DNA of 32,000 nucleotides from an uncultured bacterium (GTDB lineage Bacteria > Margulisbacteria > WOR-1 > CAVSGV01), in assembly GCA_963699255.1 (NCBI GenBank), contig OY969425.1, positions 810,001 through 842,000 of the forward strand, read 5' to 3'. Below are positions 7,302 through 23,351 of this stretch, in pieces. Position 1 is the stretch's first letter. Every line of letters begins with the position of its first letter. The notes below the pieces were generated by a model. The model saw only the letters and a list, made by a program, of their open reading frames with translations. It was not told where the DNA came from and did no database searches. The position numbers were made by a program, and so were the translations under genes.

Positions 7302-7346
7302 AAAAACACCTCCCTTTTAATTGTTCAAATGATAACCACTTTTATC

Positions 7347-7355: not shown

Positions 7356-7389
7356 AATCCCCCCCATACTTAATAGTATGCAAACGATA

Positions 7390-9180
7390 TCACCTGGAAC
7401 CTTCTGCGCCAAGAAAACCCTTATAGTCATCCATCTCTTTCTTCAGCATCTCCGTATGAGAGAATATTTCGACCAGATCTTCCATTGTGGCCTTCTCATT
7501 GAGCTGTTTCCTGCTCAAATATCCCAGAACGTTTATTTCACTCGTCTTTGCAGCTTTGGACATTATACGCGCGAGCTCAGCTCTGGTAAGAATAGCGTTA
7601 GGTTTAAAAGTGCCGTTCCCGTAACCCTGCATTATGCCGGCAGACTTGACCGCGCTGATGAAATCTGCCGCCCAAAAATCCTGGCTGACATCCTTAAAGG
7701 CGGTTTTTTGAAACTGTACGGTCTCCAGCTTTCTGGCTTTTGAAATGATCATCGCCAGCATTCCTCTTGAGAGCTCTTTGTTCAAGTTATAATCTTTCCC
7801 AAGATAACGGAAGAATTCCGTATAGATAACCACGTCTTCAAAATACTTGTTCCGCGCATCTTCCGGTGCGAGGTCAGGAGGAAGATAAAACCTGATTATT
7901 TTTCTTGCGAACTCGGCCTCCGCGTTGCTCGTATCTTTTAATCTTATTTTTATTTCATTCCTGCCGATATTGAGAGGAACGGGCGTCTCAAAAGTCATGT
8001 CGCTTCTGATCCTCACTTTTTCTCCGTTTATCCAAACATCGGTCACATCTGTCTCAACGGTGCCGCTGAAAGTCTGCTCGGCATCCAGAGTGTACAGGTT
8101 GGCGGCAGGGATGATCGATATTTTTTGCGCGATCGCCTTTACCGGCGCAGCGGCCTCGGCGACCGCCTCAGCTGTCGGAGCTGTAACCTCTTCTTTTTTC
8201 GGCGGCGGAGCTTCCCGCACATAACCGGCGCCGCTGCTGAAAGTAAGAGAAAAAATGTTCGAAGCGAAACTTGACTGTTCATAGTTCTGCATGAATGCCA
8301 GGTCCGCCATTATCCCCGAATACTCAAAACCCAGTCCAAAGGTCATGTTGGTCGTCAGTGTGCCGCCTTCCGCGCCGCTTGCCTCTTGATCATAGCCGGC
8401 CCTGAGTCTCAAACTCGGGTGGATCCTCCATTCCACGCCAATGTGCATCGGCCAGGGTGTGTCCGGTCCGCTTAGGAACATATCCTGATCAAGCGCGAAT
8501 CTGGCATCATGCTCCAGCCAGTAGAACGATACTCCGATCTTTACTATAGAGGGGATGGTCTCCGGCGGCTCGTAACCGTAAAGCCTGGATCCGCTTACCG
8601 CATTTTGAAGGTTCAATCCGTAGGAGATCCATTTTTCAGGAACATATTTAAGTCCAAGATCAATGTTGTAACCTGTTCCGGCGGCATTTACGTCGCCGGT
8701 AAATCCTTTCGAATAATATTTCAAAGTTGCTCCGCCATAAAGATCGGGTTCGTCCCCCGTGGATGACCGGCCTTCTCCAATATCTCTTCCGTAAGACAGA
8801 ACAAAGGCCTGGTTATAGAAATCCGTTGTGCCTCCGCCTGAAACAGCAATGCCGCCTGATCTTGACCCGACATATCCTACACCGAAAACACCTGCCGGTG
8901 TGGGAGTGGCGCCGCAGACCATCGTATATTGATATTCATTCAGGAAATTTGAGCTCATAGTGGAGATGGCCCAGCTTTTCAGGCTACCGAGTCCGGCGGG
9001 ATTCAAGAACATGGCGTTCATGTCGTCCGCAACGGCAACAAAAGCCCGTCCCATGCCTAAAGGACGAGCCCCGATCCCGACAGAAATAGGATCATCATAA
9101 TAAATGACCCCGTAGGAACCCGCGGGGTATAGAGTTAAAACAAAAAATACCGCGACCAGCAGTTTCCTTAAAATTTTCAT
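7390..9180 (-). CDS. outer-membrane FadL/TodX/PorV-like beta-barrel fused to a Pro/Ala linker, an Ig-like module and C-terminal SLH domain(s)
   Basis: Signal peptide MKILRKLLVAVFFVLTLYPAGSYG. N-terminal hatch-like motif GARPLGMGRAFVAVADDMNAMFLNPAGLG. Alternating aromatic/Gly beta-strand pattern up to ~aa 320. Linker APPPKKEEVTAPTAEAVAEAAAP. C-terminal SLH signature FKDVSQDFWAADFISAVKSAGIMQGYGNGTFKPNAILTRAELARIMSKA. The start overlaps the upstream stop (ATGA at 9177-9180). Confidence 0.75.
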   Translation of the reverse strand: MKILRKLLVAVFFVLTLYPAGSYGVIYYDDPISVGIGARPLGMGRAFVAVADDMNAMFLNPAGLGSLKSWAISTMSSNFLNEYQYTMVCGATPTPAGVFGVGYVGSRSGGIAVSGGGTTDFYNQAFVLSYGRDIGEGRSSTGDEPDLYGGATLKYYSKGFTGDVNAAGTGYNIDLGLKYVPEKWISYGLNLQNAVSGSRLYGYEPPETIPSIVKIGVSFYWLEHDARFALDQDMFLSGPDTPWPMHIGVEWRIHPSLRLRAGYDQEASGAEGGTLTTNMTFGLGFEYSGIMADLAFMQNYEQSSFASNIFSLTFSSGAGYVREAPPPKKEEVTAPTAEAVAEAAAPVKAIAQKISIIPAANLYTLDAEQTFSGTVETDVTDVWINGEKVRIRSDMTFETPVPLNIGRNEIKIRLKDTSNAEAEFARKIIRFYLPPDLAPEDARNKYFEDVVIYTEFFRYLGKDYNLNKELSRGMLAMIISKARKLETVQFQKTAFKDVSQDFWAADFISAVKSAGIMQGYGNGTFKPNAILTRAELARIMSKAAKTSEINVLGYLSRKQLNEKATMEDLVEIFSHTEMLKKEMDDYKGFLGAEGSR

Positions 9181-10052
9181 TGGCGGAGTATAACTATCTT
9201 TATCCGATCAAGCTCTCTGGCGCTGCCGCCGGATCCTGAAACGATGCTGAGTAAATAAACGCCGGAAGGCAATTCCTGGTTGAAATCCGATATGGCGTTC
9301 CAGGGAACGGAGTTTTCTCCGGCCGCTCCGCCGTTCTCTCCCGCCGGGATCGTCTTCTGCCAGGCGATCGCGCCTCTCTGGTTGAATAAATAAAGCGTTA
9401 TTGTCGCCGAGGTATTGAGCGTGTATTTTATCATTGTAGGGCCGTTGTACGGGTTGAACGGATTCGGCTCGTTGAAGGGAGTCCCGATCACCTCCACACG
9501 ATTATGGGACAGGACAGCAAACCCCTTGGCAAGGGTGCCTATCTTGCCGTAACCTGTATTTATGACCGCCACATTGCGCGCTCCGGTAACAGCGCCGGTC
9601 AGGTCAAAAGTACATTCCATGCTCGTTGAACTTTCGATCGTGACCGTTGTTCCGTCAATGTCCGTCAGGCTTGGGCCGGTGAGTCTGGCTGTAGCGTCTG
9701 AGGAAATATTCCAGCCGTTAATGATCACCCTGTATGACGTGTAATTATACCCGGTCGCCGGTTTGATGGCTTTGACCACGGGCGTTTCAGCCGTTGCTGC
9801 AGCGCCTGTGCCGTAAACTATGCCCAGGAACCTGCTTTCCAGCGTGTGGCTTGAGTTCGTCATTGCCTTCGGGGCGACTTCCCTCAGTTTGCCGAACAGC
9901 TTGTGGCTGGTCGATCCCATGGAAGCACCGCCAAGGTCAATGACCTCGGAGGATATCGCGTAGTCTGCGTTGGTGGCGGCAAGTGAAGCCGGTGAAGTGA
10001 AAAATAATAATATTATAAGTATTTCGATCGCATGTTTATTCACATTAAACAC
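9177..10052 (-). CDS. secreted protein with IPT/Ig-like middle part and FlgD-Ig / T9SS-type C-terminal-domain-like tail
   Basis: Signal peptide ..ILIILLFFTSPASLAATNA. The C-terminal ~90 aa follow the FlgD_ig/Por-secretion-tail pattern (NPFNPYNGPTMIKYTL..ATITLYLFNQRGAIAWQKTI...VPWN....LPSGVYLL). GTG start. Translationally coupled to the barrel gene. Confidence 0.65.
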   Translation of the reverse strand: MFNVNKHAIEILIILLFFTSPASLAATNADYAISSEVIDLGGASMGSTSHKLFGKLREVAPKAMTNSSHTLESRFLGIVYGTGAAATAETPVVKAIKPATGYNYTSYRVIINGWNISSDATARLTGPSLTDIDGTTVTIESSTSMECTFDLTGAVTGARNVAVINTGYGKIGTLAKGFAVLSHNRVEVIGTPFNEPNPFNPYNGPTMIKYTLNTSATITLYLFNQRGAIAWQKTIPAGENGGAAGENSVPWNAISDFNQELPSGVYLLSIVSGSGGSARELDRIKIVILRQ

Positions 10053-10089
10053 TTATTATTTTAGTTCCTTAATTATTTTATATGATCCT

Positions 10090-13000
10090 TTATATGATTT
10101 GAACCGCAATCCAGTTTGTTGGATGGCTTGCGGAGTTGCTGCTGTCAGTTATTTGGACGTTATTTCCGGATAAACCACAGGAGATACCTGTTGCCGTAAA
10201 TTCACTTTGGACCTTAACATGATAGGTACTGTCATAGGCATCCCAGCGACAGAAAGCCAGCCATTTTCCGATGCCAAGCGTAGCCCCATAGTCTGCTGCC
10301 GGCCCTGAGGCGGTAATTTCCCACACTTCCGGGGCAGATCCTCCTAAAGTTAGTATAGTAGTAGCGCTGGTAGCAGTTATACTGCCGGAAGTTGTATAAA
10401 ACCCCGTGGCTTTCACGCTGCCACTTACCTCTAATAACTCTCCTGGAGTGTTCGTCCCTATACCCACATTCCCGGTTTTAAATATCGCACTATATGTGCC
10501 CCCTGCTATATCAACCTCATGAGGGGTGACACTATTATAAAAGACCCCTCCCCAACCACCTGAACTGTTAGCCTGTCCCAAGATGCCCTGGCCAGCTACG
10601 GTATTCCCTGCAATTGCACCATATGTAAAGTCACCAACTGAACTTCCGTTATTAACAGTCAACTTACTTCCTGGATTCGTCGTCCCGATGCCAACATTGC
10701 CTGTACCGCCGGCATTTACAAAAATTGAAGGTACAGCGCCTTCTAGAGTGGTTACCTGCAATTTCCCCGTCGGACTTGTCGTCCCTATACCAACGCTGCC
10801 CTGCAAAAGGGTTTTTGTAATTGAGCTGTTGCCCAATACAACTGCGTTTGATGCCGTCGCCTGCGCGCTGTATCCTATTGCGATGGCGTTTGTAAGGTTG
10901 TTAACCGAAGTATTGGCGCTCTCCCCAATGAAAACGCACTGATTATTGTTATCGAGTGTTGTTCCTGAATTGAATCCGGCGCGATAACCGAACCCCACAT
11001 TGTCGCTTCCGGTAGCGTTGCTGTACAAAGCGCCGTCACCCATAGCGGTATTGTTATTTCCCGTTGTGTTCATGTCGAGCGCGGGGTTTCCGACCGCCGA
11101 GTTCCTGCCGCCGCTTGTGTTGCTTGAAAGCGCGCCGAATCCCAGTGCCGTATTGTCGAAGCCGGTGCTATTGCTTCCAAGCACGTTATATCCAACGGCG
11201 GTATTGCCGCCGACCGACGTAGAGGTACTTCCGCCGGCATTGTATCCTATGAACGTCTCTTGAAATCCTGACGTATTATCAAAATCCATATTCAACGATG
11301 AGCTTTTAACTTGTAAAGTGTTATTCGGACTCGTCGTCCCGATGCCGACCCTATTATTAGCTGGATTAACAATTAATGCGGAAGAATCCACAGTAAGATA
11401 TCCGGTAGTCGAGATATTTATGGCTGAATTCAAGTCTGATCCAACTATCGTCCCATCAAGTATCGCGTCTGAGGTTACTGAACCTGTTCCCATATTCACA
11501 GCTGTTATCGTGTTGTTCGCTATAGCATCAGAAGTAACCGAATCCGACCCCATATTCGCTGCTGTTATCGTGTTGTTCGCTATCTTCGCTCCCGTAACAT
11601 TGGCATTGAGTATCTTTGCGGTTATTACCGCGTTTGATCCTATTGCATCTGCTGTCACTGAACCTGTTCCCATATTCGTCGCATTGATGGTGTTATTGGC
11701 TATAGCATCATTAGTCACTGAGTTTGTTCCCATATTCGCCGCTGTGATCGTGTTATTCGCTATCTTCGCTCCTGTTACATTGGCATTGAGTATCTTTGCG
11801 GTTATTACCGCGTTTGATCCTATTGCATCTGCTGTCACTGAACCTGTTCCCATATTCGTCGCATTGATGGTGTTATTGGCTATAGCATCATTAGTCACTG
11901 AGTTTGTTCCCATATTCGCCGCTGTGATCGTGTTATTCGCTATCTTCGCTCCTGTTACATTGGCGTTGAGGATCTTTGCGGTTATTACCGCGTTTGATCC
12001 TATTGCATCTGCTGTTACAGATCCTGTTCCCATATTCGCCGCTGTGATCGTGTTATTCGATATGGCTCCCGTAGTTACTACTCCACTCCCAAAATATGAT
12101 GCCTGTAACTTACCGACGCCTATTGTTGGGCTTGGATATGTCCCCGTCAAATCTCCTGAAGCGCTCCCTCCGGGCGCCACTCCTGATATTGTTGTGTTCG
12201 ATGCCGCCGTTAATCTCCCATCTGCATCTACCGTATATGTGCCAACTTGTGTAGCGCTCCCGTATGTCCCCGCTGTTACTGCTGTCGATGCCAGCGCGTC
12301 AGCTGTTACTGAGTTGGTTGCCATATTCGCTGCTACAATCGTGTTGTTCGCTATCGCATCATTAGTCACTGAATCTGAACCCATCTTGGATGCTGTGATC
12401 GTGTTATTGGCTATGGCTCCCGTAGTTACTACTCCACTCCCAAAATATGATGCCTGTAACTTACCGACGCCTATTGTTGGGCTTGGATATGTCCCCGTTA
12501 AGTCTCCTGAAGCGCTTCCCCCAGGTGCTACTCCTGATATTGTGGTATTTGATGCTGCTGTTAATCTACCATCAGCACCTACTGTATAGGTGCCGACCTG
12601 TGTAGCAGAACCGTATGACCCCGCTGTTACTGCTGTCGATGCTAATGCGTCTGATGTTACTGAACCTGTTCCCATATTCACAGCTGTTATCGTATTATTA
12701 GCTATCTTCGCCCCTGTAACATTTGCATTGAGGATCTTTGCGGTTATTACGGCATTTGATCCTATTGCGTCTGATGTTACTGATCCTGTTCCCATATTTG
12801 ATGCAGCGATCGTGTTGTTCGCTATCTTCGAGTTTGTAACTGCACCGGATGCGATAGTCGGGCTTGGATATGTTCCCGTCAGATCCCCTGAAGCGCTTCC
12901 TCCCGGGGCTACTCCTGATATTGTGGTATTTGATGCTGCTGTTAATCTACCATCAGCACCTACTGTATAGGTGCCGACCTGTGTAGCAGAACCGTATGAC

Positions 13001-16000
13001 CCCGCTGTTACTGCTGTCGATGCTAATGCGTCTGATGTTACTGAACCTGTTCCCATATTCACAGCTGTTATCGTATTATTAGCTATCTTCGCCCCTGTAA
13101 CATTTGCATTGAGGATCTTTGCGGTTATTACGGCATTTGATCCTATTGCGTCTGATGTTACTGATCCTGTTCCCATATTTGATGCAGCGATCGTGTTGTT
13201 CGCTATCTTCGAGTTTGTAACTGCACCGGATGCGATAGTCGGGCTTGGATATGTTCCCGTCAGATCCCCTGAAGCGCTTCCTCCCGGGGCTACTCCTGAT
13301 ATTGTGGTATTTGATGCTGCTGTTAATCTACCATCAGCACCTACTGTATAGGTGCCGACCTGTGTAGCAGAACCGTATGACCCCGCTGTTACTGCTGTCG
13401 ATGCTAATGCGTCTGATGTTACTGAACCTGTTCCCATATTCACAGCTGTTATCGTATTATTAGCTATCTTCGCCCCTGTAACATTTGCATTGAGGATCTT
13501 TGCGGTTATTACGGCATTTGATCCTATTGCGTCTGATGTTACTGATCCTGTTCCCATATTTGATGCAGCGATCGTGTTGTTCGCTATCTTCGAGTTTGTA
13601 ACTGCACCGGATGCGATAGTCGGGCTTGGATATGTTCCCGTCAGATCCCCTGAAGCGCTTCCTCCCGGGGCTACTCCTGATATTGTTGTGTTCGATGCTG
13701 CCGTTAATCTACCGTCAGCATCTACCGTATATGTTCCCACCTGTGTCGCGCTTCCGTATGACCCTGCTGTTACTGCTGTCGATGCCAAGGCATCTGCTGT
13801 TACTGAGTTGGTTGTCATCTTTGCCGCTGTAATGGTGTTATTCGCTATCGCATCAGAAGTCACCGAGTTCGTTCCCATTTTGACCGCTGTTATGGTGTTA
13901 TTCGCTATGGCTCCTGTAGTTACCACTCCACTCCCAAAATATGATGCCTGGATCTTACCGACGCCTATTGTAGGGCTTGGATATGTTCCCGTCAGGTCTC
14001 CTGAAGCGCTTCCTCCGGGCGCCACTCCAGATATTGTTGTGTTCGATGCTGCGGTTAACCTTCCGTCTGCATCTACCGTATATGTTCCCACCTGTGTCGC
14101 GCTTCCGTATGACCCCGCTGTTACTGCTGTCGATGCCAGCGCATCTGCTGTTACTGAGTTCGTTCCCATATATGATGCTTGGATCTTACCAACGCCTATT
14201 GTAGGGCTTGGATATGTCCCCGTTAAGTCTCCTGAAGCGCTTCCTCCGGGCGCCACTCCAGATATTGTTGTGTTCGATGCTGCGGTTAATCTACCATCAG
14301 CACCTACTGTATAGGTGCCGACCTGTGTAGCAGAACCGTATGACCCCGCTGTTACTGCTGTCGATGCCAGCGCATCTGCTGTTACTGAGTTTGTTCCCAT
14401 ATTTGATGCTGTTATCGTGTTATCAGCTATCTTCGCCCCTGTAACATTTGCATTGAGGATCTTTGCGGTTATTACGGCATTTGATGCTATTGCGTCTGAT
14501 GTTACTGAGTTCGTTCCCATATATGATGCCTGGATCTTACCGACGCCTATTGTAGGGCTTGGATATGTCCCCGTTAAGTCTCCTGAAGCGCTTCCTCCGG
14601 GCGCCACTCCAGATATTGTTGTGTTCGATGCTGCGGTTAACCTTCCGTCTGCATCTACCGTATATGTTCCCACCTGTGTCGCGCTTCCGTATGACCCCGC
14701 TGTTACTGCTGTCGATGCCAGCGCATCTGCTGTTACTGAGTTCGTTCCCATATATGATGCCTGGATCTTACCAACGCCTATTGTAGGGCTTGGATATGTC
14801 CCCGTTAAGTCTCCTGAAGCGCTTCCTCCGGGCGCCACTCCAGATATTGTTGTGTTCGATGCTGCGGTTAACCTTCCGTCTGCATCTACCGTATATGTTC
14901 CCACCTGTGTCGCGCTTCCGTATGACCCCGCTGTTACTGCTGTCGATGCCAGCGCATCTGCTGTTACTGAGTTCGTTCCCATATATGATGCTTGGATCTT
15001 ACCAACGCCTATTGTAGGGCTTGGATATGTCCCCGTTAAGTCTCCTGAAGCGCTTCCTCCGGGCGCCACTCCAGATATTGTTGTGTTCGATGCTGCGGTT
15101 AACCTTCCGTCTGCATCTACCGTATATGTTCCCACCTGTGTCGCGCTTCCGTATGACCCCGCTGTTACTGCTGTCGATGCCAGCGCATCTGCTGTTACTG
15201 AGTTCGTTCCCATATATGATGCTTGGATCTTACCAACGCCTATTGTAGGGCTTGGATATGTCCCCGTTAAGTCTCCTGAAGCGCTTCCTCCGGGCGCCAC
15301 TCCAGATATTGTTGTGTTCGATGCTGCGGTTAACCTTCCGTCTGCATCTACCGTATATGTTCCCACCTGTGTCGCGCTTCCGTATGACCCCGCTGTTACT
15401 GCTGTTGATGCCAATGCGTCTGATGTTACTGAACCTGTTCCCATATTCAAAGCTGTGATCGTATTATTTGCTATCTTCGATGTCGTAACCGCGCCGGATG
15501 CGATAGTGGGATTTGGATATGTTCCTGTTAGATCCCCTCCGGCGCTTCCCGCCGGATTAATAGTAACATTTGTAGCGCCTGTTATTCTCCCATCTGCATC
15601 TACTGTTATTAAAGTAGCTTGTGTAGTAGAGCCATATGTCCCGGCGGTTACTGCTGTCGGAGCTAACGCATCTGTTGTTACTGAACCTTTTCCCATATTC
15701 AAAGCTGTGATCGTGTTGTTCGCTATGGCTCCCGAAGTTACCACGCCACTTCCAAAATATGATGCCTGGAGCTTACCTACGCCTATCGTCGGATCTGGAT
15801 ATGTCCCCGTCAGGTCTCCTCCCGCACTTCCTCCTGGGGCTACTCCTGATATAGCAACGTTTGATGCACCTGTTAATCGTCCGTCTGCATCTACCGTTAC
15901 TAACGCAGATTGTGTTGTTGATCCATATGTACCGGCCGTTACTGTTGTCGATGCTAACGCGTCTGCCGTTACCGAATTTGTTCCCATATTCGCCGCTGTG

Positions 16001-16929
16001 ATCGTATTATTCGCTATCTTCGCTCCCGTGACATTGGCATTAAGGATCTTCACTGTTGTTACCGCGTTTGATGCTATATCAGCTGCCACTATTGTTCCAT
16101 CTAAAATAGCTCCTGTAGTTACCACTCCAGTTCCGAAATATGATGCCTGTAACTTTCCGGCTCCTATCGTCGGGTTTGGATATGTTCCTGTCAGAATCTC
16201 CTCCTGCGCTTCCTCCAGGCGCTACTCCTGATATTGTGGTATTTGATGCCGCCGTCAATCTCCCGTCCGCGTCTACCGTATATGTGCCCACCTGCGTCGC
16301 GCTTCCGTATGACCCCGCTGTTACTGCTGTCGATGCCAGCGCATCAGCTGTTACCGAGTTTGTTCCCATATTTGATGCCGTGATCGTGTTGTTCGCTATG
16401 GCTCCTGAAGTGACCGCTCCTGTTGTCAGCATTGCCGCAGTTATTGAAGCATTTGAAGGCGTTCTTGTATCTGAAAGTCTTGTGTCATCAGCAGTTACCA
16501 CATGACAAGCGGATGTATCAGCAGATGGAGTTTCAAGTGAAACAACACCTTGAACTGCAGTTGTCGCTGCTGTTGAACATGTCGTCGCGGTCCCCGATAA
16601 GGTAGAATAAGCCACAGATCCAGAACAGGCGGACGATATTCCTGAAAGAGCGGCATAATTAGCAGTTAAAGCAGTGTCGGCATTTACATTCGGTTCCCAT
16701 ATGAGCAGCCCAGAACCGTCGTTCTTTAAATATGTATTTGCGGACCCTTGTAAAGACGGCCAGGTATATATAAGCCCGTTAAATTTGATGTATGCGGCAT
16801 CCAGAGTGCCGGTAACCGTTATAGGCCCATTTACTGCTTCAGGGAACCGGGTCCCGGGCCTCCAGTTTGGATCGCCAGAGCCGGCACGCTCATCAAAATA
16901 AGGATCGCCCATATCACTGACCTTTTCAT
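10090..16929 (-). CDS. giant (~2,280 codon) secreted tail-fibre-like repeat protein, split into three reading frames by two 1-nt indels (pseudogene, phase variant or assembly error)
   Basis: Three consecutive pieces make one gene: a 32-codon ORF from ATG 16929 not listed in the ORF track (MKRSVIWAILILMSVPALA, SD aggaagggg), the 277-aa ORF 16079..16912, and the 2011-aa ORF 10090..16125. The signal peptide joins FPEAVNGPITVTG if 1 nt is added near 16845-16850. The repeat consensus GGDLTGTYPNPTIGAGKLQASYF is restored by deleting one A at 16195-16196. The body has more than a dozen GDLTGTYP(S/N)PTI modules. The C-terminal part has Hep_Hag/YadA-head-like NTA(V/L)G repeats and four VGIGTTxPxxxLxV motifs typical of tail-fibre-domain proteins. 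Confidence 0.8.
11461..12060 (-). repeat. coding tandem repeat, 180-bp unit (3.3 copies) made of three 60-bp subunits
   Basis: Sequence lines 11641-11760 and 11821-11940 are identical. 11761-11820 versus 11941-12000 differ at 2 nt. Every 60-nt block begins tat.gcatc and contains ttcccatattc. Encodes 60-aa units of IANNTITAANMGTNSVTNDA / IANNTINATNMGTGSVTADA / IGSNAVITAKILNANVTGAK. Confidence 0.9.
12527..13686 (-). repeat. coding tandem repeat, 381-bp unit, about 3.04 perfectly identical copies
   Basis: The antisense ORFs 12590..12970, 12971..13351 and the start of 13352.. are identical, as are the corresponding sequence lines. Identity begins at gctactcctg (12527) and ends near 13686. Confidence 0.9.
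13940..15405 (-). repeat. coding tandem repeats, 231-bp unit: ~1.5 copies at 13940-14290 and ~3.9 near-identical copies at 14504-15405
   Basis: Antisense ORFs at 14559, 14790, 15021 and 15252 are spaced exactly 231 nt apart and are virtually identical. The unit encodes 77 aa: GVAPGGSASGDLTGTYPSPTIGVGKIQASYMGTNSVTADALASTAVTAGSYGSATQVGTYTVDADGRLTAASNTTIS. Confidence 0.9.
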
Positions 16930-17056: not shown

Positions 17057-17998
17057 TTATTGCTTGGGCTGTATGCTTATCTTGCCAGCATCCGCCCAGT
17101 CGCTCTCAGCTCCCAGGCCAGTTATTATCCCGCCGCTCACATTTATTGTCCGGACCTTTTTCTGGAGCGTGCCATCCGCATTGAGACGGATATCGGTAAC
17201 CTGAACATAATTTTCAGAAATACCATCTGCTCCTTTTTGATTGAATCCGGAGTCAGATCTTACAGCGCCTGAAACGTTCAACCCGCCCCCCTGAAGGACC
17301 ACCCGTCCATTGCCGGATGGTATCAGGGTGATATTTTGGTCCGACCCGCCGGCGGAAAATGTCAAGGCACCGGAACCTGAGATAGAACCATTGTCACTTC
17401 CGGTCCCGCCGTGAGCCGCGCCCAAGATCCCGGAAGTGAGATCCGCGGTCGAGTGCGTATGCCCGCTTAAGGAAACCGCGACGCCGGCTTGCGTGATGGT
17501 CTTAGCATCCAGAGGCCCGGCAACGGTCAGATCATTAGAGCGCAGGGTCGGGACTTCCAGCGACTTGCTGATTATCGCACTATCGGTCTTTAATGTTTTA
17601 GAGCGCAGGTCCGCGGTCTCCATCCACCCATTGGAGATTATCCCGGTATCAACCTTTAATGTTTTCGCGGCATTATCCCAAAGTAAACCGGGGTCTCCCG
17701 CAAATGAATTATCCAGATTGAACTGGAGAGCGCCATTCGACCCTCCAGGGACTATCTCCTTTTGCCATGAGAGTTTTCCTTTGCCTTCATTTTTCAAATA
17801 GGTCCCTGATTCCTGAGTAGAGGGCCAGTTGTAGCTTATCCGGTTGAAAACCGTCAACCCTACAACCTTTATTGCCCCGCTTACCTCCAGTGTTCCTCTT
17901 ATTCCCTCCCTGGCACTGATCCCCGGACCTCCGAACGGAACTGCAAATACCGGTACGCTCAACAACAGGACCATTGCTACTATTAACAGCTTTTTCAT
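17057..17998 (-). CDS. secreted tail-fibre-like protein (313 aa) with HxH / GGTG motif
   Basis: Signal peptide MKKLLIVAMVLLLSVPVFA. N-terminal module shared with the neighbouring genes (ISYNWPSTQESGTYLKNEGKGKLSW). GHTHSTADLTSGILGAAHGGTG resembles the HTH..DIT.G.L...GGTG motif I recall from phage tail-fibre proteins. SD AGGGAGGA upstream. Confidence 0.75.
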   Translation of the reverse strand: MKKLLIVAMVLLLSVPVFAVPFGGPGISAREGIRGTLEVSGAIKVVGLTVFNRISYNWPSTQESGTYLKNEGKGKLSWQKEIVPGGSNGALQFNLDNSFAGDPGLLWDNAAKTLKVDTGIISNGWMETADLRSKTLKTDSAIISKSLEVPTLRSNDLTVAGPLDAKTITQAGVAVSLSGHTHSTADLTSGILGAAHGGTGSDNGSISGSGALTFSAGGSDQNITLIPSGNGRVVLQGGGLNVSGAVRSDSGFNQKGADGISENYVQVTDIRLNADGTLQKKVRTINVSGGIITGLGAESDWADAGKISIQPKQ

Positions 17999-18024
17999 TG
18001 CTTATCCTCCCTTTCTATTTTCCC

Positions 18025-20532
18025 TTAATTATCTGTGCGCCCTATTTCTATCCAGCGGCCATGTGCGCCAAGAGAGGCCACATAGATAAGCTGCAGAATA
18101 TCACCTTTACCCAAGGTGAAAGGAGTCGCCGCAGAAAGTTGAAGGACATCTAATGTGTCATTATTGAATGTGACGCACTTCAGATCATCCGTCCCTATCA
18201 ATACAAGCATCTGGCCATCTGAGCCGGCGGCTATGGGAGGATTGGCCGTAATGGTTACCGGAACATCTTTCCCTCGTATCAAGAGCACCTTTTTGTTCAG
18301 CATATCCTTTGTGATGCCGCTGACATCTATATCGGTGAAGTCTGACGGCAGATAGCTGACGCTTCCCCTGACTTCCATGGTTGAATTAATTATTACTTCT
18401 CCGCTCACAGAGAGTGAATCTATGGTGCCTATCCCGGTAATGTTCGGGAATGATCCTGTCGCGAGATCCGCGTTGACGATGGTCCCGTTCAGTATCGCAT
18501 CTGATGTGACAGAACCCGTTCCCATATATGACGCCTGGATCTTGCCTGCGCCTATCGTCGGGTTTGGATATGTTCCCGTCAGATCTCCTCCAGCGCTTCC
18601 TCCCGGCGCTACTCCTGATATTGTCACATTTGTTGCGCCTGTTAATCTTCCATCCGCATCTACCGTCACTAATGTAGCTTGTGTTGCAGAACCATATGTC
18701 CCCGCTGTTACCGTTGTCGATGCCAGCGCATCCGCTGTTACTGAGTTTGTTCCCATATATGATGCCTGGATCTTACCGACGCCTATTGTCGGGTTTGGAT
18801 ATGTTCCCGTCAGATCCCCTCCAGCGCTTCCTCCCGGAGCTACTCCTGCTATGGTGGTATTTGATGCCGCCGTTAATCTTCCATCAGCACCTACCGTATA
18901 TACGCCAACCTGTGTCGCGCTACCGTATGACCCAGCTGTTACTGCTGTCGGAGCTAACGCATCTGTTGTTACTGAACCTGTTCCCATGTTAGATGCAGTT
19001 ATCGTATTGTTCGCTATCTTCGAGGTCGTAACCGCAGCGGATGCGATGGTCGGGTTTGGATACGTTCCCGTCAGGTCCCCTCCAGCGCTTCCTCCCGGAG
19101 CTACTCCTGCTATGGTGGTATTTGATGCCGCCGTTAATCTTCCATCAGCACCTACCGTATATACGCCAACTTGTGTTGCGCTACCGTATGACCCAGCTGT
19201 TACTGCTGTCGGAGCTAACGCATCTGTTGTTACTGAACCTGTTCCCATATTAGATGCAGTTATCGTATTGTTCGCTATCTTCGAGTTCGTAACCGCAGCG
19301 GATGCGATGGTCGGGTTTGGATATGTTCCTGTCAGGTCCCCTCCTGCGCTTCCTCCCGGAGCTACTCCTGCTATGGTGGTATTTGATGCCGCCGTTAATC
19401 TTCCATCAGCATCTACCGTATATGTGCCGACCTGTGTCGCGCTACCGTATGACCCAGCTGTTACTGCTGTCGGAGCTAACGCATCTGTTGTTACTGAACC
19501 TGTTCCCATGTTAGATGCCGTGATCGTGTTGTTCGCTATCTTCGAGGTCGTAACCGCAGCGGATGCGATGGTCGGGTTTGGATATGTTCCTGTCAGATCT
19601 CCGCCAGCGCTTCCTGCCGGCGCTACTCCTGATATCGTCACGTTAGATGCTGCCGTTAATCTTCCGTCTGCATCTACCGTATATGTGCCAACTTGTGTTG
19701 CGCTACCGTATGACCCAGCTGTTACTGCTGTCGGAGCCAATGCGTCCGCTGTTACTGAGTTCGTTCCCATGTTAGACGCGGTTATCGTATTGTTCGCTAT
19801 CTTCGAGGTCGTAACCGCAGCGGATGCGATTGTCGGATTTGGATATGTCCCTGTCAGGTCCCCTCCTGCGCTTCCTGTGCAGGTTGATGCAGTTCCCGCC
19901 AGGATAGCATAATTTGCATTAGTAGCATTATCAGCATTGGTAGCAGTATCAGCGCTAGTAGCATGACCTGCATTAGTAGCGCTATCAGCACTGGTAGCAT
20001 GGCCTGCATTAGTAGCACTATCAGCACTGGTAGCGTGACCTGCATTAGTAGCAGAATCAGCACTGGTAGCAGAATCAGCATGCCCGCCATTAGCAGTTCT
20101 TGCATTTGACATTCTGGTATCATTAGCAGTAACCACATTATAAGCATTTGTGTTAGATGAACTATCTTCAAGTGAAACGCCGCCGATCGTGGTCGTGTTT
20201 CCCGAGAGTAATTCGATCGTGCCTGTAGTAGTTATAGTCCCTCCGGAGAGTCCGGTGCCGATGTCGATCCGAGTTATTGTCCCGCCACTGACCGTTTCCC
20301 AGGTGAGCGACCCGGCGCCATTATTCGTCAAGTAAGTATTCGCGGCTCCCTGTAAAGAAGGCCAATGGTAAATGACCCCGTTCAACTTGGTATCTATCAC
20401 ATCAATTGTACTGGTAACCGTTAAAGGCCCCTTCACCGCTTCAGGAAATTCGGGCCCTCCACCACCAAGCTGGACCGCTAAAGCCGAGGAACTCATTATT
20501 CCCAAAAACAAAACAACTAACCACTTTTTCAT
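18025..20532 (-). CDS. secreted tail-fibre-like repeat protein (835 aa)
   Basis: Signal peptide MKKWLVVLFLGIMSSSALA. N-terminal module FPEAVKGPLTVTSTIDV..LNGVIYHWPSLQGAANTYLTNNGAGSLTWE. 36-bp His/Ser/Ala repeats. Six to seven GGDLTGTYPNPTI modules. The C-terminal ~95-aa domain ends IEIGRTDN and is shared with the 872-aa protein. SD AAGGGGG upstream. Confidence 0.8.
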   Translation of the reverse strand: MKKWLVVLFLGIMSSSALAVQLGGGGPEFPEAVKGPLTVTSTIDVIDTKLNGVIYHWPSLQGAANTYLTNNGAGSLTWETVSGGTITRIDIGTGLSGGTITTTGTIELLSGNTTTIGGVSLEDSSSNTNAYNVVTANDTRMSNARTANGGHADSATSADSATNAGHATSADSATNAGHATSADSATNAGHATSADTATNADNATNANYAILAGTASTCTGSAGGDLTGTYPNPTIASAAVTTSKIANNTITASNMGTNSVTADALAPTAVTAGSYGSATQVGTYTVDADGRLTAASNVTISGVAPAGSAGGDLTGTYPNPTIASAAVTTSKIANNTITASNMGTGSVTTDALAPTAVTAGSYGSATQVGTYTVDADGRLTAASNTTIAGVAPGGSAGGDLTGTYPNPTIASAAVTNSKIANNTITASNMGTGSVTTDALAPTAVTAGSYGSATQVGVYTVGADGRLTAASNTTIAGVAPGGSAGGDLTGTYPNPTIASAAVTTSKIANNTITASNMGTGSVTTDALAPTAVTAGSYGSATQVGVYTVGADGRLTAASNTTIAGVAPGGSAGGDLTGTYPNPTIGVGKIQASYMGTNSVTADALASTTVTAGTYGSATQATLVTVDADGRLTGATNVTISGVAPGGSAGGDLTGTYPNPTIGAGKIQASYMGTGSVTSDAILNGTIVNADLATGSFPNITGIGTIDSLSVSGEVIINSTMEVRGSVSYLPSDFTDIDVSGITKDMLNKKVLLIRGKDVPVTITANPPIAAGSDGQMLVLIGTDDLKCVTFNNDTLDVLQLSAATPFTLGKGDILQLIYVASLGAHGRWIEIGRTDN
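18540..19880 (-). repeat. coding tandem repeats, 231-bp then 261-bp units (about 5 copies, diverged a few percent)
   Basis: cgggtttggata.gttcc anchors recur at about 18551, 18790, 19051, 19312, 19573 and 19834. Antisense ORFs at 19041 and 19302 are 261 nt apart. The 87-aa unit is GGSAGGDLTGTYPNPTIASAAVTTSKIANNTITASNMGTGSVTTDALAPTAVTAGSYGSATQVG.YTV.ADGRLTAASNTTIAGVAP. Confidence 0.85.
19961..20068 (-). repeat. coding 36-bp tandem repeat x3 (NAGHATSADSAT)
   Basis: gcatgacctgcattagtagcgctatcagcactggta (19961-19996) is repeated at 19997-20032 and 20033-20068 with 2-5 substitutions. Degenerate copies flank the array. Confidence 0.85.
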
Positions 20533-20551
20533 TTTCGCTCAACCCCCTTTT

Positions 20552-23170
20552 TTAATTATCTGTCCTGCTGATTTCATACCAGGCATTATCAACCTGGTCA
20601 TATATACATATCATAGTATCTTTATTGCCAAAGGTAAAGGGTGAATTGCCGGATAGTATCAAGTAATTCCCAGGGTTGAACTTTACGGTATTTATATTGT
20701 CAGTGCCCCGCAGGATTATCATTTGCCCGTCCTCTCCAGGCGCGATCGGAGGGTCCGCCGTCACAACCACCGGCCCGCCATTTCCCGCGATGCGGATCAA
20801 TTTCTTATTCAACATTCCCGCTGTCAGACCCGAACTTGCATTAATATAATTTATCGATGACGACGGATAGATCACTTTTCCATCAGCCTTAAATGTACCA
20901 CCTACTTCTAGGTTCCCCCCCGCTTCTATGGTGACCGTGCCCACCGTAAGGTTGCCGGTCATGGTGTCGCCTGCCCTGAGGACCGCGGTCTCTGCACTGA
21001 TCGCCGAACCAGCTGATATTGCGTAATCCGCTGTTGCCGCATTCGTAGCTGTGACTCCCGATAAATTCGATCCGTTGCCAAAAAATGCTGCCGCAGTTAC
21101 AACACCAGTTGTGCTAATATTGATATTAGTCATAAGAGCGCTACCCGCTATCTTATTCGTGGCCGTGTCAACCTTGCTCCAGTCAACCCCTGATATTTGC
21201 GAATTAGATATACCTAAAGCTTTTACCTCAAGTGATTGATCACCATTCAGATCAACAGTGATATTATCGTATTTGTTTGTTGCAGCTTCACCAGTTGGAC
21301 CGATCGGGCCTTGAATACCTTGAATGCCCTGAATACCTTGGATACCTTGTGGACCTGCTTCTCCAGTCAATCCGATGGGACCTTGAGGTCCGATAGCTCC
21401 GGTCTCGCCAGTCGGACCGATGGGACCTTGAATTCCTTGAATGCCCTGGATCCCTTGAATGCCTTGCGGACCTTGAGGCCCTGCTTCTCCAGTTGATCCG
21501 ATAGGACCCTCAGGACCAACAGCACCAGTCTCACCGGTCAGACCGATTGGCCCTTGAATTCCTTGGATACCTTGTATGCCTTGCGGACCTTGAAGACCTG
21601 CTTCGCCAGTTAATCCGATAGGACCTTCAGGACCGACAGCTCCAGTCTCACCAGTTGGACCGATCGGACCTTGAATTCCTTGGATGCCCTGAATACCTTG
21701 GATACCTTGTGGACCTGCTTCTCCAGTTAATCCGATAGGACCTTGAGGTCCGACTGCGCCAGTCTCACCGGTCGGACCGATCGGACCTTGAATTCCCTGA
21801 ATACCTTGGATACCTTGTGGACCTTGAGGACCGACTGCACCAGTCTCTCCGGTCAGACCGATCGGACCTTGAATTCCTTGGATACCTTGTATGCCTTGCG
21901 GACCTTGAGGACCAGCTTCTCCCGTTACTATTGCCCAAACCGGATTTTGAGATGCGCCTTGAGTCTCTAAGTAGTACCCGCTGGTTCCTGCTGTAAGTCT
22001 GGCCCATTTCGATCCATCATAATACATCACATCACCTTGCGACGCGGCATCCGTTGTTACAACTGTTGACGATAACCTTGCATTGTCGATCGTCCCTGAA
22101 GTGATATTCGTTGCGTCCAGGTTGGTCAGTAAGTTGCCTCCTCCGTCTATGGACTTGTTAGTTAATGTTTGCGCGTCCGTTGTCGTTACGACCACGCTAG
22201 TATCGATCGTTAAAGTCCCTGTTATCATTATCGGACCTCCAAGCAATCCTCTGCTTGTATTTACCTGAGTAACAGTTCCGGTCCCTCCGGAGTTCACCCA
22301 GGTGAATTGATCCGATCCGCCGTAGCTTAGAACCTGCCCGTTGGCCGGCGAATTTGTGGCGTTCAGTTTTGGTTCAATGATCGAATCATTTGCTATCGCA
22401 TCCGAGGTTACTGATCCGGTCGCCATTTTCGATGCTGTGATCCCTCCATTAGCAACATCGAGCGTTCCCGAACTTGTTATCGGACCCCCTGTCAATGACG
22501 GTCCTGTATTGACAGACGTAACGGTTCCGCTGCCGCCTCCTATTGCAGAGATCTCGATCGTTTGCCCGCTTTGCAAGAGAGAGACATTCGTTCCGCCTTT
22601 AAGCGTTACTGTCCCAGTTAAAGCCGCCGCGTCGGATGAAGATATTCCTGTAACGGAAGCCGGAATAACTGAGGAAGAAAGTTTCCCCATTCCATCGGTC
22701 GTTGGAATGATGTTTGCCCCTGAAGCAGATATGGGATATCCCGCGGCTTTTGTCGAATCGTCGGCTTGAAGCGTCCTGTACGCGTGTGCCGCGCTAGCTA
22801 TCTGGATCCTTGGCGTCATTTCTCCGCCCGGCGGGACTTCAACTCCCAGCCACCTGTCCGTACCATCAAATACACTTGGTTGGAAAGCTATTATCGTGCT
22901 GAAGACACCATTGCTATCGGGGGTGAGAGTTTCTACGGATGTCCCGTTCGTGACAGGGACGCCGCCGCTTGCCTGGCTGTACATTCTGAAAGTAAAAGTT
23001 GTGGAAGTAGTCGCTGGGGTCCCGTCTAAATATGTCAGTCTGCCTTCATAACCTATTATTTGCGGTATCGCCGCGTAACATATCCCCGTTATGCCTATCC
23101 GGCTGCCGTCAGGAAAGCCCGGCAGGTCCGCCAGAGGCAGGCTGAAAGCGGACACCATTAATATGAACAC
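20552..23170 (-). CDS. secreted collagen-like / tail-fibre-like protein (872 aa; true start may be ATT 23194)
   Basis: The ORF begins mid signal peptide ([14 protein letters not shown]). In frame upstream, ATT ATT AAG AAG lies 7 nt after GAGGTG, which would give (M)[21 protein letters not shown]. Motifs: QTLTNKSI, 71 Gly-X-Y triplets, [23 protein letters not shown]. The C-terminal domain ends YEISRTDN. Confidence 0.8.
21284..21922 (-). repeat. collagen-like triple-helix region: 71 uninterrupted Gly-X-Y triplets (639 nt)
   Basis: Counted from the translation: [30 protein letters not shown] ... GPI GPT GEA, with no interruption. Higher-order unit of about 13-14 triplets. The DNA copies are diverged, unlike the perfect repeats of the giant gene. 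Confidence 0.9.
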
Positions 23171-23351
23171 TGAAACAAAAATCTTCTTAATAATAAAATA
23201 ACACCTCAGTTGTTCATCGTGTCATAGTCCCGCTACCTTATTATTGGAATATAATGTGATGCGGGATCCCGCCTTTGGCGGTGATTAACCGTGTCATTTC
23301 TTCTTTATTATACCAGAGAATTTTGCATATTCAAAGGGGGTAAAAGCCGGA

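Follow-up and report, generated by a model that had tools for sequence, protein, structure and literature searches.

The stretch of DNA analysed here (the window; 32,000 nt, assembly GCA_963699255.1, contig OY969425.1, positions 810,001-842,000 of the forward strand) belongs to an uncultured diderm related to Candidatus Margulisiibacteriota; the closest named relatives of the lineage are Margulisiibacteriota and Saganbacteria. Six co-directional genes, g1 to g6, lie on the minus strand between housekeeping genes (Table 1). The first five are separated by 19, 26, 127, and 37 nt, and the end of g5 shares the 4 nt ATGA with the start of g6; these values were re-measured and are the same as those reported in a previous sequence-only reading of this DNA. 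A promoter-like site ca. 110 nt upstream of the g1 start is the best minus-strand consensus match in the region (10/12). Downstream of g6 lies g7, a conserved neighbour (73-82% identical in the related loci L082-L084), which has a promoter-like site of its own and is probably outside the system. GC content is even across the window, and gene annotation revealed no capsid, terminase, tail-tube, baseplate, or integrase gene in the 32 kb, as had been claimed, nor any other morphogenesis, lysis, or integration gene.

Table 1. Features of the locus. Coordinates are window-relative.
Feature	Position	Strand	Description
Promoter-like site 5' of g1	23307..23334	-	TTGAAT, 16-nt spacer, TATAAT, extended TG; consensus match only
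g1	20552..23194	-	880 aa from ATT 23194; 872 aa from GTG 23170
g1 N-terminal domain	22715..23122	-	~aa 25-160; candidate docking domain
g1 collagen triple-helix stalk	21284..21922	-	Uninterrupted (G-X-Y)71; Pfam Collagen E 1.6e-33
g1 RTDN-type C-terminal domain	20555..20899	-	~115 aa; aligns with g2 C-terminus
g2	18025..20532	-	835-aa exported fibre protein
g2 RTDN-type C-terminal domain	18028-18372	-	
g3	17057..17998	-	313-aa exported protein: signal peptide, N-module, HxH motif (GHTHSTADLTSGILGAAHGGTG)
g4	10090..16929	-	2279 aa after repair of two 1-nt frameshifts
g4 N-module	16682-16846	-	
g5	9177..10052	-	291-aa exported adaptor
g6	7390..9180	-	596-aa outer-membrane protein
g6 plug-like segment and barrel	8236-9093	-	aa 30-315; 14 strands
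g6 Ig domain	7891-8121	-	aa 354-430; Pfam Glucodextran_B E 2.5e-7
g6 SLH repeats (three)	7411-7866	-	aa 439-590; Pfam SLH E 8e-14
g7	6996..7301	-	101-aa helical protein without signal peptide, downstream of g6
g7 promoter-like site	7329-7356		

The g6 product consists of a signal peptide, a plug-like N-terminal segment followed by a barrel, a Pro/Ala linker, an Ig domain, and three SLH repeats. An AF2 model (pLDDT 78.7) shows 14 long strands, a disordered linker, the Ig domain, and a helical SLH triplet at the C-terminus. In a Foldseek search of the PDB, the top match was the PorV chain 6h3i_F, from the SprA complex (E 3.8e-10, TMt 0.68), followed by FadL, while the SLH part matched Sap/SpaA SLH domains, i.e., SCWP-binding SLH structures. 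A weaker fold match was obtained with 9n2d_B, a chain of a Bacteroidota BAM complex structure that we take to be BamG. The score against the NCBIfam PorV_fam model of the PorV/PorQ family was 83.6 bits, below the cut-off of 90. The structure check thus predicts a membrane barrel whose best solved match is PorV, in agreement with the initial description of g6 as a FadL/PorV-like outer-membrane barrel carrying SLH domains.

The g5 protein contains a signal peptide, a segment (aa 25-86) that is conserved yet has no AF2 fold, a TIG-like Ig domain (aa 92-181), and an Ig domain of the CTD superfamily (aa 188-288). Both Ig domains were modelled with a pLDDT of ~90, the second as a confident beta-sandwich at the extreme C-terminus. 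The CTD-type domain carries NPFNP, GVYLL, and K285; an alignment of homologues, of which 47 were found (including a paralogue on the same 1.77-Mb contig), shows invariant residues, and K285 is conserved in at least 90% of them. Type A CTDs are characterised by a nearly invariant lysine close to the C-terminus (PMC10994853). Foldseek placed PorU (6za2) on top, ahead of generic tandem Ig folds, and family members matched FlgD_ig (14/22), TIG (8), CHU_C (5), and Por_Secre_tail (3). The FlgD-Ig/T9SS-CTD-like tail that had been proposed for g5 stands as a superfamily Ig domain, on the strength of the model and the homologue matches, but the TIGR04183 score of 18 bits is below the curated cut-off of 23. 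No other CTD match is present in the window, and g1-g4 are without a CTD.

All four fibre proteins have Sec signal peptides, as had been stated, with two qualifications: in g4 the signal is split off by a frameshift, and in g1 a classical signal peptide is obtained only with an ATT start (23194; GAGGTG 7 nt upstream), the first canonical start being GTG at 23170. The signal peptide of g1 is followed by a conserved N-terminal domain, tail-fibre-type repeats (E 2e-59 against PHROG tail-fibre families; motifs QTLTNKSI and GDTMTGNL in the translation), a collagen stalk, to which the collagen stretch noted earlier could be assigned, and an RTDN-type C-terminal domain. In g2, the signal peptide and a post-signal N-module precede DUF5907 / GDLTGTYPNPTI repeats (Pfam DUF5907 E 1.6e-19, with PHROG matches as well) and an RTDN-type C-terminal domain; tandem repeats of 261 nt (4.2 copies) are visible in its DNA. 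No match to g3 was found in Pfam, NCBIfam, or PHROG, and among 5.8 billion clusters it has only 7 homologues; its translation carries GHTHSTADLTSG...GGTG, and the HxH region resembles the R-type pyocin fibre 6cl5 weakly (E 0.095). L166 and L168 have the same gene order around their g3 homologues; L169 encodes a protein with part of g3 but without the N-module, in a small secreted-protein gene cluster without a g5/g6 pair.

The largest gene, g4, encodes a signal peptide, the N-module, more than 20 tail-fibre-type repeats (E 1.2e-69 against the PHROG 892 tail fibre), and a YadA-head-like C-terminal region with VGIGTTSPNNTLQV, NTAxG repeats, and VGIGTTxP motifs; like g2, its translation contains GDLTGTYPNPTI. 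It is spread over three frames: the signal peptide (ATG 16929, MKRSVIWAILILMSVPALA), the FPEAV module with the first repeats (ORF 16912-16079), and the remaining 2011 aa (16125-10090). A single ORF is restored by inserting one base near 16846-16854 and deleting one T near 16195-16204. Two tandem arrays are visible in its DNA, one with a 381-nt unit (3.5 copies, 97% identical) and the other with a 231-nt unit (4.1 copies, 98% identical). Since a conserved APH-like housekeeping gene in the same window (3046-4127) is also frameshift-split relative to intact orthologues, assembly errors are probably the cause in g4; if the frameshifts are real, g4 may be a pseudogene. All tail-fibre-like motifs listed in the sequence-only reading could be read directly in the translations of g1-g4.

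Pairwise alignment confirmed both domains that the fibre proteins had been said to share. The N-module is common to g2, g3, and g4 (41/82 identical positions for g2/g4 and 36/88 for g2/g3), while the C-terminal regions of g1 and g2 align over ~160 aa with 64 identities and end in EISRTDN and EIGRTDN. The RTDN domain occurs widely at the C-terminus of fibre proteins (650 clusters at 50% identity, nearly always at the extreme C-terminus) and matches Pfam Phage_depo_C weakly (E 4e-4).

In related loci, a gene ending in a g5-type CTD lies immediately upstream of 45 of 88 PorV-like barrel genes; about half of the sampled barrels are without one. The pair-bearing loci span several phyla, many of them outside the FCB superphylum, and the 4-nt overlap recurs in L012, L013, L021, L023, L025, L032, L043, and L076. 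The translational coupling seen in the ATGA overlap is part of a pairing conserved far beyond this genome. In the reverse direction, a barrel follows only 7/104 generic NPFNP-type CTDs, among them the four that most resemble the CTD of g5. A second copy of the g5/g6 pair exists in the same genome; its two proteins share 65% and 61% identity with those of the first. In L001, the orthologue of this second copy (82% and 78% identity to it) likewise comes after two fibre genes. A co-directional G/T/S/N/A-rich protein of at least 800 aa is encoded within 6 kb of 19/43 paired barrels versus 6/44 unpaired ones (Fisher p = 0.002).

In three relatives (L082, L083, and L084), the locus occupies the same site between the same housekeeping genes. 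Retained there are g5, g6, g7, and, of g1, the N-terminal domain, whereas the fibre genes are entirely different; large secreted fibre-like proteins adjoin the pair in relatives. Identity to L082 is ~80% for flanking proteins, 64% for g5, and 55% for g6, and judged by these sequences the locus evolves faster than housekeeping genes. Such wholesale fibre exchange between close relatives is as expected of exposed, selected surface structures. Synteny thus supports the CTD gene/barrel pair as a recurrent unit but not the N-module and RTDN domain, which had been put forward as conserved parts: both are absent from four related loci (three orthologous and one of the second type), and no N-module adjoins the pair in any of these four. 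We conclude that they are shuffled fibre modules and not conserved parts of the system.

In the three orthologous loci, the product of the first fibre gene carries the g1 N-terminal domain at its own N-terminus (50-69% identity), and a 34% identical copy is found in L021, within a 1658-aa protein directly after the pair. An HMM additionally matched L025, L067, and L004, bringing the total to seven loci; it is also located next to the pair in distant loci of Margulisiibacteriota and Endomicrobiales. It has no Pfam match, no PDB sequence match, and only three weak partial matches in IMG/VR. As the sole fibre segment conserved together with g5/g6 in relatives, it is a candidate docking domain. 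The sequence-only reading had not singled out this module, the one truly co-conserved with the pair.

We lean towards the view that the locus is a wall-tethered anchor for variable surface fibres, i.e., a chromosomal, Sec-dependent, adhesin-type system. In the proposed arrangement, g6 sits in the outer membrane as a 14-strand barrel of the PorV/PorQ family. Because the strand number is even, the C-terminal linker, the Ig domain, and the three SLH repeats would be periplasmic, and because periplasmic SLH domains bind wall-linked polymers, the barrel would be bolted to the cell wall. [quoted passage not shown] The cargo would be long, probably trimeric surface fibres composed of tail-fibre-type repeats, a collagen stalk, YadA-head-like repeats, and a beta-sandwich tip. 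The g1 protein may dock on the g5/g6 platform via its N-terminal domain; g2, g3, and g4, which share a different N-module, may attach to g1 or to the same platform. The g5-g6 pair probably anchors the neighbouring exported fibre proteins. For a dedicated export module, as originally suggested, we found no evidence: there is no translocon gene in the window, PorV in T9SS is a carrier and not a channel, and we know of no protein translocation by PorV-type barrels.

The arrangement resembles part of T9SS, yet it occurs outside the bacterial groups known for T9SS. In the Bacteroidota pairs PorV-PorU, PorQ-PorZ, and PorP/SprF-type barrels with type B CTD adhesins (e.g., SprB-SprF), a FadL-fold 14-strand barrel likewise joins a beta-sandwich CTD partner, and PorV and PorU are the top structural matches of g6 and g5. 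In T9SS, the gene for the cargo, in many cases a giant repetitive adhesin, neighbours that for the barrel (sprB/sprF, porU/porV). Type B substrates exit the translocon bound to carriers, which anchor them at the surface (PMC10994853). The organism could have a complete T9SS elsewhere, with g5 as a substrate or attachment-complex component and g6 as its carrier, a PorV/PorQ paralogue. PorV as the best structural match of g6, the g6 score near the family cut-off, the contact of the g5 family with Por_Secre_tail and CHU_C models, and the presence of the same pair in FCB phyla having T9SS (Ignavibacteria, Zixibacteria, and Calditrichia) are consistent with this possibility. We nevertheless consider it unlikely, since the closest named relatives lie outside FCB and the SprA translocon is described as FCB-specific (PMC12611786), no T9SS gene, translocon or motor, is present in the 32-kb window or in the 20-kb orthologous loci, and the score with the PorV equivalog model is 22.6 bits (cut-off 250); no T9SS model is matched above its curated cut-off. 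In addition, the CTD is here on a small adaptor and not on the long fibres, and the periplasmic Ig domain and SLH triplet of g6 are absent from described PorV, PorQ, and PorP. It is about equally improbable that the adjacency is coincidental, with g6 (with or without g5) being a general outer-membrane-to-wall tether or an SLH-bearing FadL-like transporter of hydrophobic compounds and the fibres being independent adhesins accumulating in the same variable "surface island". A barrel with SLH fits the operational definition of an OmpM-type tether for Terrabacteria, including Margulisbacteria and Saganbacteria (bioRxiv 10.1101/2021.05.31.446380), FadL ranks second among the fold matches of g6, half of the related barrels are without an upstream CTD gene, and N-module proteins are found away from any pair. 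However, the coupling to a CTD gene persists across phyla, orthologous sites retain the g1 N-terminal domain along with the pair despite replacement of all that lies in between, fibre genes precede both g5/g6 modules of the lineage, and giant proteins are enriched beside paired barrels.

The remaining alternative, a tail-fibre module of prophage or tailocin origin, intact or as a decayed remnant, is already effectively refuted and retains very little probability. The fibre proteins do have much in common with phage tail and R-type pyocin fibres: their repeat families match PHROG 892, 21412, 5073, and others (strong matches at 1e-69 to 1e-59) as well as DUF5907, a pyocin-like HxH motif, VGIGTTxP motifs, and a C-terminal beta-sandwich-like tip (Phage_depo_C) are present, and the RTDN domain is seen on 18 IMG/VR contigs. 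On the other hand, the genes lie in a chromosomal housekeeping context without virion genes and with uniform GC content, the same site is occupied in three relatives, and every fibre protein has a Sec signal peptide; virion fibres are, to our knowledge, assembled in the cytoplasm without one. For the g1 N-terminal domain and the N-module, viral counterparts are few or absent. The original preference for a chromosomal locus over a prophage tail module is thereby upheld, while its "domesticated tail-fibre parts" describe the repeats but not g3 and the RTDN domain, neither of which has a match in GenBank phages.

For the preferred reading, a wall-tethered fibre anchor, partial parallels exist in several known systems. 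OmpM / Slp / SLH-porins of diderm Terrabacteria, like g6, combine an outer-membrane beta-barrel and periplasmic SLH in one polypeptide, and the Margulisbacteria and Saganbacteria lineage uses SLH-based tethering, with the SLH triplet of g6 matching SCWP-binding structures. In g6, however, the order is reversed (barrel first, SLH last), the barrel is of the PorV/FadL type and not a porin, an Ig domain takes the place of the coiled-coil stalk, and the gene is coupled to a CTD protein and fibre genes. As in the collagen-like fibres BclA (Bacillus exosporium), Scl1/Scl2, and Lcl, g1 has an N-terminal attachment region and a globular domain at the C-terminus, connected by a long G-X-Y stalk without interruption; its collagen part matches the NCBIfam SclA, SclB, and Lcl models with scores far below cut-offs. 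The likeness is confined to this region, there is no LPXTG motif or exosporium anchor, and the organism is diderm. BamG-BamH of the Bacteroidota BAM complex differs in that g5 is no lipoprotein, no BamA association is in view, and the fold match is much weaker than that to PorV; it is nevertheless a precedent for a holding barrel of the g6 type, since its FadL-family barrel no longer serves in transport and instead grips a surface-exposed partner by the N-terminal segment (PMC12611786).

The six genes lie on one strand with spacers of 19, 26, 127 and 37 nt and a 4-nt overlap (ATGA) between g5 and g6, exactly as the sequence-only reading had it, and every fibre-type motif it named could be read in the translations. 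[quoted passage not shown] A proper signal peptide of g1 requires a start at ATT 23194, which has a GAGGTG ribosome-binding site 7 nt upstream; with a start at GTG 23170, the first canonical codon, the charged n-region of the signal peptide is lost. An alternative explanation of the unusual start is a base-call error, ATG having been read as ATT. Gene g4 is interrupted by two single-base frameshifts, so that its signal peptide, N-module (the post-signal module of g2, g3 and g4) and 2011-aa body are in three different frames; a one-base repair at each of the two sites yields a 2279-aa ORF. An APH-like phosphotransferase gene in the window is also split between two frames, and its orthologues in the related loci L082 and L084 are intact (361-383 aa), which indicates indel errors in the assembly. 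Since this conserved gene is split by a frameshift in the same window, the frameshifts in g4 are probably assembly indels, rather than pseudogenisation. Long ORFs opposite the g4 and g2 repeats were rejected as genes: their pattern follows the periodicity of the repeats and no family matches were obtained, so that they are almost certainly repeat artefacts.

Positions and strands of the features discussed (window positions, unless another locus is named)
Feature	Position	Strand	Remarks
g1	23194 (or 23170) to 20552	minus	fibre-like
g2	20532 to 18025	minus	fibre-like
g3	17998 to 17057	minus	fibre-like
g4	16929 to 10090	minus	fibre-like, two frameshifts
g5	10052 to 9177	minus	adaptor
g6	9180 to 7390	minus	barrel-Ig-SLH
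g7	6996-7301	minus	101 aa, helical
APH-like phosphotransferase gene	3046-4127	minus	4127-3930 in frame -1; 3948-3046 in frame -3
Antisense ORFs	11318-16231 and 18377-19912	plus	e.g. 14315-16231; up to 638 aa
GalT	26132-26920		looks N-terminally truncated against its Pfam model
601-aa protein	28321-30126	plus	ABC-permease domain
Flank, one side			NfnB/GltD-like and PyrK-like oxidoreductases, GalT, TlyA, ABC permease, GH26-CBM9 enzyme
Flank, other side			YggS, SepF, ProC, YggT, further housekeeping genes
23S_rRNA_IVP / bAvd-like genes	L082 3117-3497 and 13101-13526; L084 844-1212
HAMP/SpoIIE (RsbU-like) phosphatase genes	L032 11803-13845; L043 3292-5295; L047 2920-4071		FCB-group loci

Local alignment confirmed both domains that had been described as shared between the fibre proteins: the N-module is common to g2, g3 and g4 (41/82 and 36/88 identities), and g1 and g2 have a common C-terminal domain (the RTDN domain), ending in EISRTDN and EIGRTDN. 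The g1 protein contains an uninterrupted collagen run, (G-X-Y)71, both sides of which match PHROG tail-fibre families (E 2e-59), and g2 and g4 are built of DUF5907 / GDLTGTYPNPTI repeats (Pfam, E 1.6e-19; PHROG 892, E 1.2e-69). Tandem repeats in the DNA of g4 (381 nt in 3.5 copies and 231 nt in 4.1 copies) are 97-98% identical, so the repeat expansion is recent. No family match was obtained for g3, whose HxH motif region weakly resembles the R-type pyocin fibre 6cl5 (E 0.095). A PDB sequence search with g1 residues 23-410 (388 aa), g3 and the C-termini of g2 and g4 revealed nothing significant, and tblastn against GenBank phages gave no match for g3, the RTDN domain of g2 or another member of the RTDN family. 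Only seven g3 homologues were found. The local order of RTDN-ending protein, g3 and N-module protein recurs on two short contigs (L166 and L168), and a more distant, partial g3 homologue, which matches around the GGTG motif and not in the N-module, is located in a small cluster without the g5-g6 pair (L169). The RTDN family comprises 650 clusters at 50% identity, in proteins of 120-3900 aa, and nearly always occupies the extreme C-terminus; it has a weak Pfam match to a phage depolymerase C-terminal beta-sandwich (E 4e-4) and is present on 18 IMG/VR contigs. The most fitting reading of the domain is that of an exchangeable fibre tip. On IMG/VR contigs L176, L172 and L170, the neighbours of the RTDN gene are almost all ORFans by PHROGs and Pfam.

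A prophage or tailocin tail module would account for the likeness to tail-fibre families, which is seen at the repeat level only (PHROG matches of 2e-59 for g1 and 1e-69 for g4). The 32 kb contain neither integration genes nor genes for morphogenesis (tube, sheath, baseplate, capsid, terminase), both flanks consist of housekeeping genes throughout, and the GC content is flat across the window. In three metagenomic relatives (L082, L083 and L084), the locus was found at the same site, between an oxidoreductase gene and yggS-sepF-proC-yggT. The absence of phage genes from the window, together with the same housekeeping site in three relatives, effectively excludes a phage tail module.

At this site, the relatives have kept the first ~200 aa of g1 (43-66% identical), g5 (46-64%), g6 and g7 (73-82%), and everything between these parts differs. 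In L082, whose housekeeping proteins are ~80% identical to those of the window, the fibre genes encode a 1175-aa protein and a DUF2341/LamG protein. Both g5 and g6 diverge faster than the housekeeping genes; this, together with the wholesale swapping of fibre genes, fits exposed structures under diversifying selection. The N-module and the RTDN domain, which had been proposed as conserved parts of the system, are missing from L082-L084 as well as from L001, a locus orthologous to a second module of the genome, and the parts that are truly conserved are different ones. The sole fibre segment conserved with the pair is the g1 N-terminal domain (~aa 25-160), found in L082-L084 and in the Endomicrobiales locus L067; in L021, L025 and L004, a gene with this domain lies directly downstream of the barrel gene. 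Neither Pfam nor the PDB gave a match to the domain, and in IMG/VR there were only three, all of them weak and partial. The most conserved gene of the neighbourhood is g7, which always follows the barrel gene at the window locus and in L082-L084 and has no family match. It was rejected as an operon member on account of its own promoter-like site and lack of a signal peptide. In L083 (ENA contig_27818), proC, relA and the g5 homologue are each split into two or three ORFs, as is typical of indel-rich long-read assemblies, and gene lengths there are to be read with caution.

Proteins 100% identical to g6 and g5 are encoded on a 1.77-Mb NCBI/ENA contig, which has a further copy of each gene, the paralogous g6 being 61% and the paralogous g5 65% identical to the first. 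Candidatus Margulisiibacteriota and Saganbacteria (WOR-1) are the nearest named relatives, judged by homologues. In L001, the orthologues of the paralogous g6 and g5 are 78% and 82% identical to them. Directly upstream of the pair in L001 are two fibre genes, one of 1525 aa that is truncated by the contig end and one of 872 aa that includes collagen, and the module adjoins rho and flagellar genes. The orthologous fibre loci of L082 and L084 are flanked by 23S_rRNA_IVP / bAvd-like genes. Proteins of the bAvd-like type are accessory to diversity-generating retroelements; the window itself showed neither a reverse transcriptase gene nor an Avd-like one.

The g5 protein begins with a signal peptide, after which come 60 aa that are strongly conserved but not folded by AlphaFold2 (AF2), a TIG-like Ig domain and a C-terminal Ig domain. 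In the last of these, the NPFNP and GVY motifs show little or no variation, and K285, six residues from the end, is kept in at least 90% of homologues; residues 188-288 are modelled as beta-sandwich strands at the extreme C-terminus (pLDDT about 90). T9SS CTDs are recognised as C-terminal beta-sandwiches of ~80-100 aa with a conserved lysine near the end (PMC10994853), and by the AF2 model and the homologue alignment g5 has both features. Its score against TIGR04183 is 18 bits, below the cut-off of 23, and g5 itself has no Pfam match. Among 22 homologues, matches at E below 0.01 were to FlgD_ig (14), CHU_C, a type B T9SS signal (5), and Por_Secre_tail (3). Because of the score below the cut-off and these mixed matches, the g5 C-terminal domain is placed in the CTD superfamily, but in no curated T9SS class.

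An AF2 model of g6, built from 25 homologues (pLDDT 78.7), has short plug-like helices (aa 30-66) and 14 long beta strands (aa 71-315), followed by a disordered Pro/Ala linker, an Ig domain (aa 354-430) and a helical SLH triplet (aa 439-590). In a Foldseek search of the PDB, the top match was PorV of the Flavobacterium SprA complex (6h3i_F, E 3.8e-10, TMt 0.68), followed by FadL, and the C-terminal part matched the SCWP-binding SLH domains of Sap and SpaA. The membrane barrel proposed from the sequence thus holds, as a 14-strand FadL-type barrel with an N-terminal plug. Barrels with an even number of strands have both termini in the periplasm; the Ig-SLH tail would therefore lie in the periplasm, where it could fasten the barrel to wall polymers. 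Pfam SLH and Glucodextran_B matches were also obtained for g6. The NCBIfam PorV/PorQ family (NF033709) was a near miss (83.6 bits, cut-off 90), and the cut-offs of T9SS_OM_PorV (NF033710; 22.6 bits, cut-off 250), PorQ (22 against 220) and PorV2 (52.9 against 325) were not reached. SLH tails on the barrels are almost confined to members of the Margulisiibacteriota and Saganbacteria, lineages in which SLH-based outer-membrane tethering is in use (bioRxiv 10.1101/2021.05.31.446380).

Fetched loci were scanned with HMMs built from the g6 barrel and the g5 CTD. A same-strand gene ending in a g5-type CTD was located immediately before 45 of 88 PorV-like barrel genes, and the start of the barrel gene commonly shares 4 nt with the stop of the CTD gene. 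Carriers of the CTD vary in length between about 250 and 3300 aa: they are small adaptors that have the g5-specific N-terminal segment in the clade of the window and some other Margulisiibacteriota, and at more distant loci the CTD is at the end of a giant protein. A metagenome scan with the g5 alignment, which returned mostly generic NPFNP-type CTDs and one close relative, served as a negative control; here a barrel follows 7/104 generic NPFNP-type CTDs, and the seven include the four that are most g5-like. Best matches in a genome scan with the barrel alignment were 25-37% identical, and close relatives were not recovered. The pair occurs in the FCB group, the superphylum known to have T9SS (Ignavibacteria, Zixibacteria, Calditrichia), and outside it in Margulisiibacteriota, Saganbacteria, Elusimicrobiota/Endomicrobia, Poribacteria, Dependentiae and Muiribacteriota. 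Co-directional genes for G/T/S/N/A-rich proteins of 800 aa or more lie within 6 kb of 19/43 paired and 6/44 unpaired barrels (p = 0.002). The only other family common to many loci is that of signal-transduction proteins (HAMP, histidine kinase, SpoIIE), which are generic and absent from the window. At three FCB-group loci, a HAMP/SpoIIE (RsbU-like) phosphatase gene whose product has an anti-sigma-kinase-like N-terminus directly follows the pair, which hints at regulated expression in those lineages; the window has no equivalent.

By sequence and fold, g5 and g6 can be likened to the T9SS carrier/anchor pairs PorU-PorV, PorZ-PorQ and SprB-SprF. T9SS genes (SprA/Sov, PorK/L/M/N, PorU) were found neither in the window nor in L001 or L082-L084. 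Since all curated model cut-offs were missed and SprA is reported to be FCB-specific (PMC12611786), g5 and g6 are kept apart from the T9SS families. Gene g6 also falls within a loose definition of the OmpM/Slp tether as SLH plus barrel in one protein (bioRxiv 10.1101/2021.05.31.446380), but its order is barrel, linker, Ig and SLH, and its barrel is of the PorV/FadL type. Two-partner secretion (type Vb) is defined by an Omp85-type 16-strand barrel with POTRA and by a passenger TPS domain, whereas g6 has a 14-strand FadL-type barrel. CdiB and FhaC were weak, lower-ranked fold matches of g6, and no Pfam or NCBIfam matches to type Vb features were found in the window proteins. Canonical OmpM/Slp proteins have an N-terminal SLH, a coiled-coil stalk and a C-terminal porin-type barrel. 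The other closest known systems are phage and pyocin fibres and collagen-like surface fibres such as BclA. In the full-text literature, we found no paper on PorV together with SLH or S-layer homology, none that mentions DUF5907 and none that links T9SS with Margulisbacteria.

The translational coupling of g5 and g6 suggests that the two products may form a 1:1 complex, in which the PorV-like barrel would hold the g5 CTD; the coupling of CTD and barrel genes in 45/88 loci is indirect support for such binding. Parallels are known: PorV holds type A CTDs with its extracellular loops, and proteins with type B CTDs are anchored at the cell surface by other carrier barrels (PMC10994853). The periplasmic Ig-SLH tail of g6 would fix the complex to the wall. 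All fibre proteins have signal peptides and so are probably exported by Sec, after which the g5-g6 platform could display them. For docking, g1 would use its conserved N-terminal domain, and the N-segment of g5, which is conserved but unstructured, is a candidate docking partner. There is a precedent for binding by a FadL-type barrel, since BamG holds the N-terminus of BamH (PMC12611786). Of the two roles that the sequence-only reading had assigned to the cluster, anchoring is supported, and dedicated export is not, there being no translocon in the window. We know of no PorV-type barrel that acts as a channel. A tentative reading, put forward with low confidence, is that g5 and g6 are a T9SS-independent two-partner display system, in which a PorV-like barrel binds its own CTD partner and possibly co-assembles with it or helps in its export. 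On the same tentative footing, the pair could be an ancestral module for T9SS carrier/attachment proteins, because it is widespread in phyla presumably without SprA (Margulisiibacteriota, Saganbacteria, Elusimicrobiota, Poribacteria, Dependentiae), and in the clade of the window the passenger may have been split off, with interchangeable fibres docking non-covalently on the wall-tethered platform.

Recognition of CTDs by PorV-type barrels is regarded as a feature of T9SS and of the FCB superphylum. If T9SS is confirmed to be absent from the non-FCB lineages with the pair, the interaction of CTD and barrel would predate the secretion system or be more general than it, and the pair would be a tractable two-gene model for hanging large proteins on the outer membrane. 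The SLH fusion of g6 would be a second, differently built tether between outer membrane and wall in diderm Terrabacteria, and matters for models of envelope evolution in which every protein with SLH and a barrel counts as OmpM. Since a hypervariable fibre cassette lies between conserved genes, the locus should be a useful marker for strain variation and phage/host interaction in an uncultured phylum.

Elsewhere in the window, a 601-aa protein has an unusual architecture, with a C-terminal ABC-permease domain (BPD_transp_1) preceded by an N-terminal region of ~380 aa. Weak beta-propeller matches, including PorZ_N_b_propeller (E 4.6e-5), were obtained for the N-terminal region.
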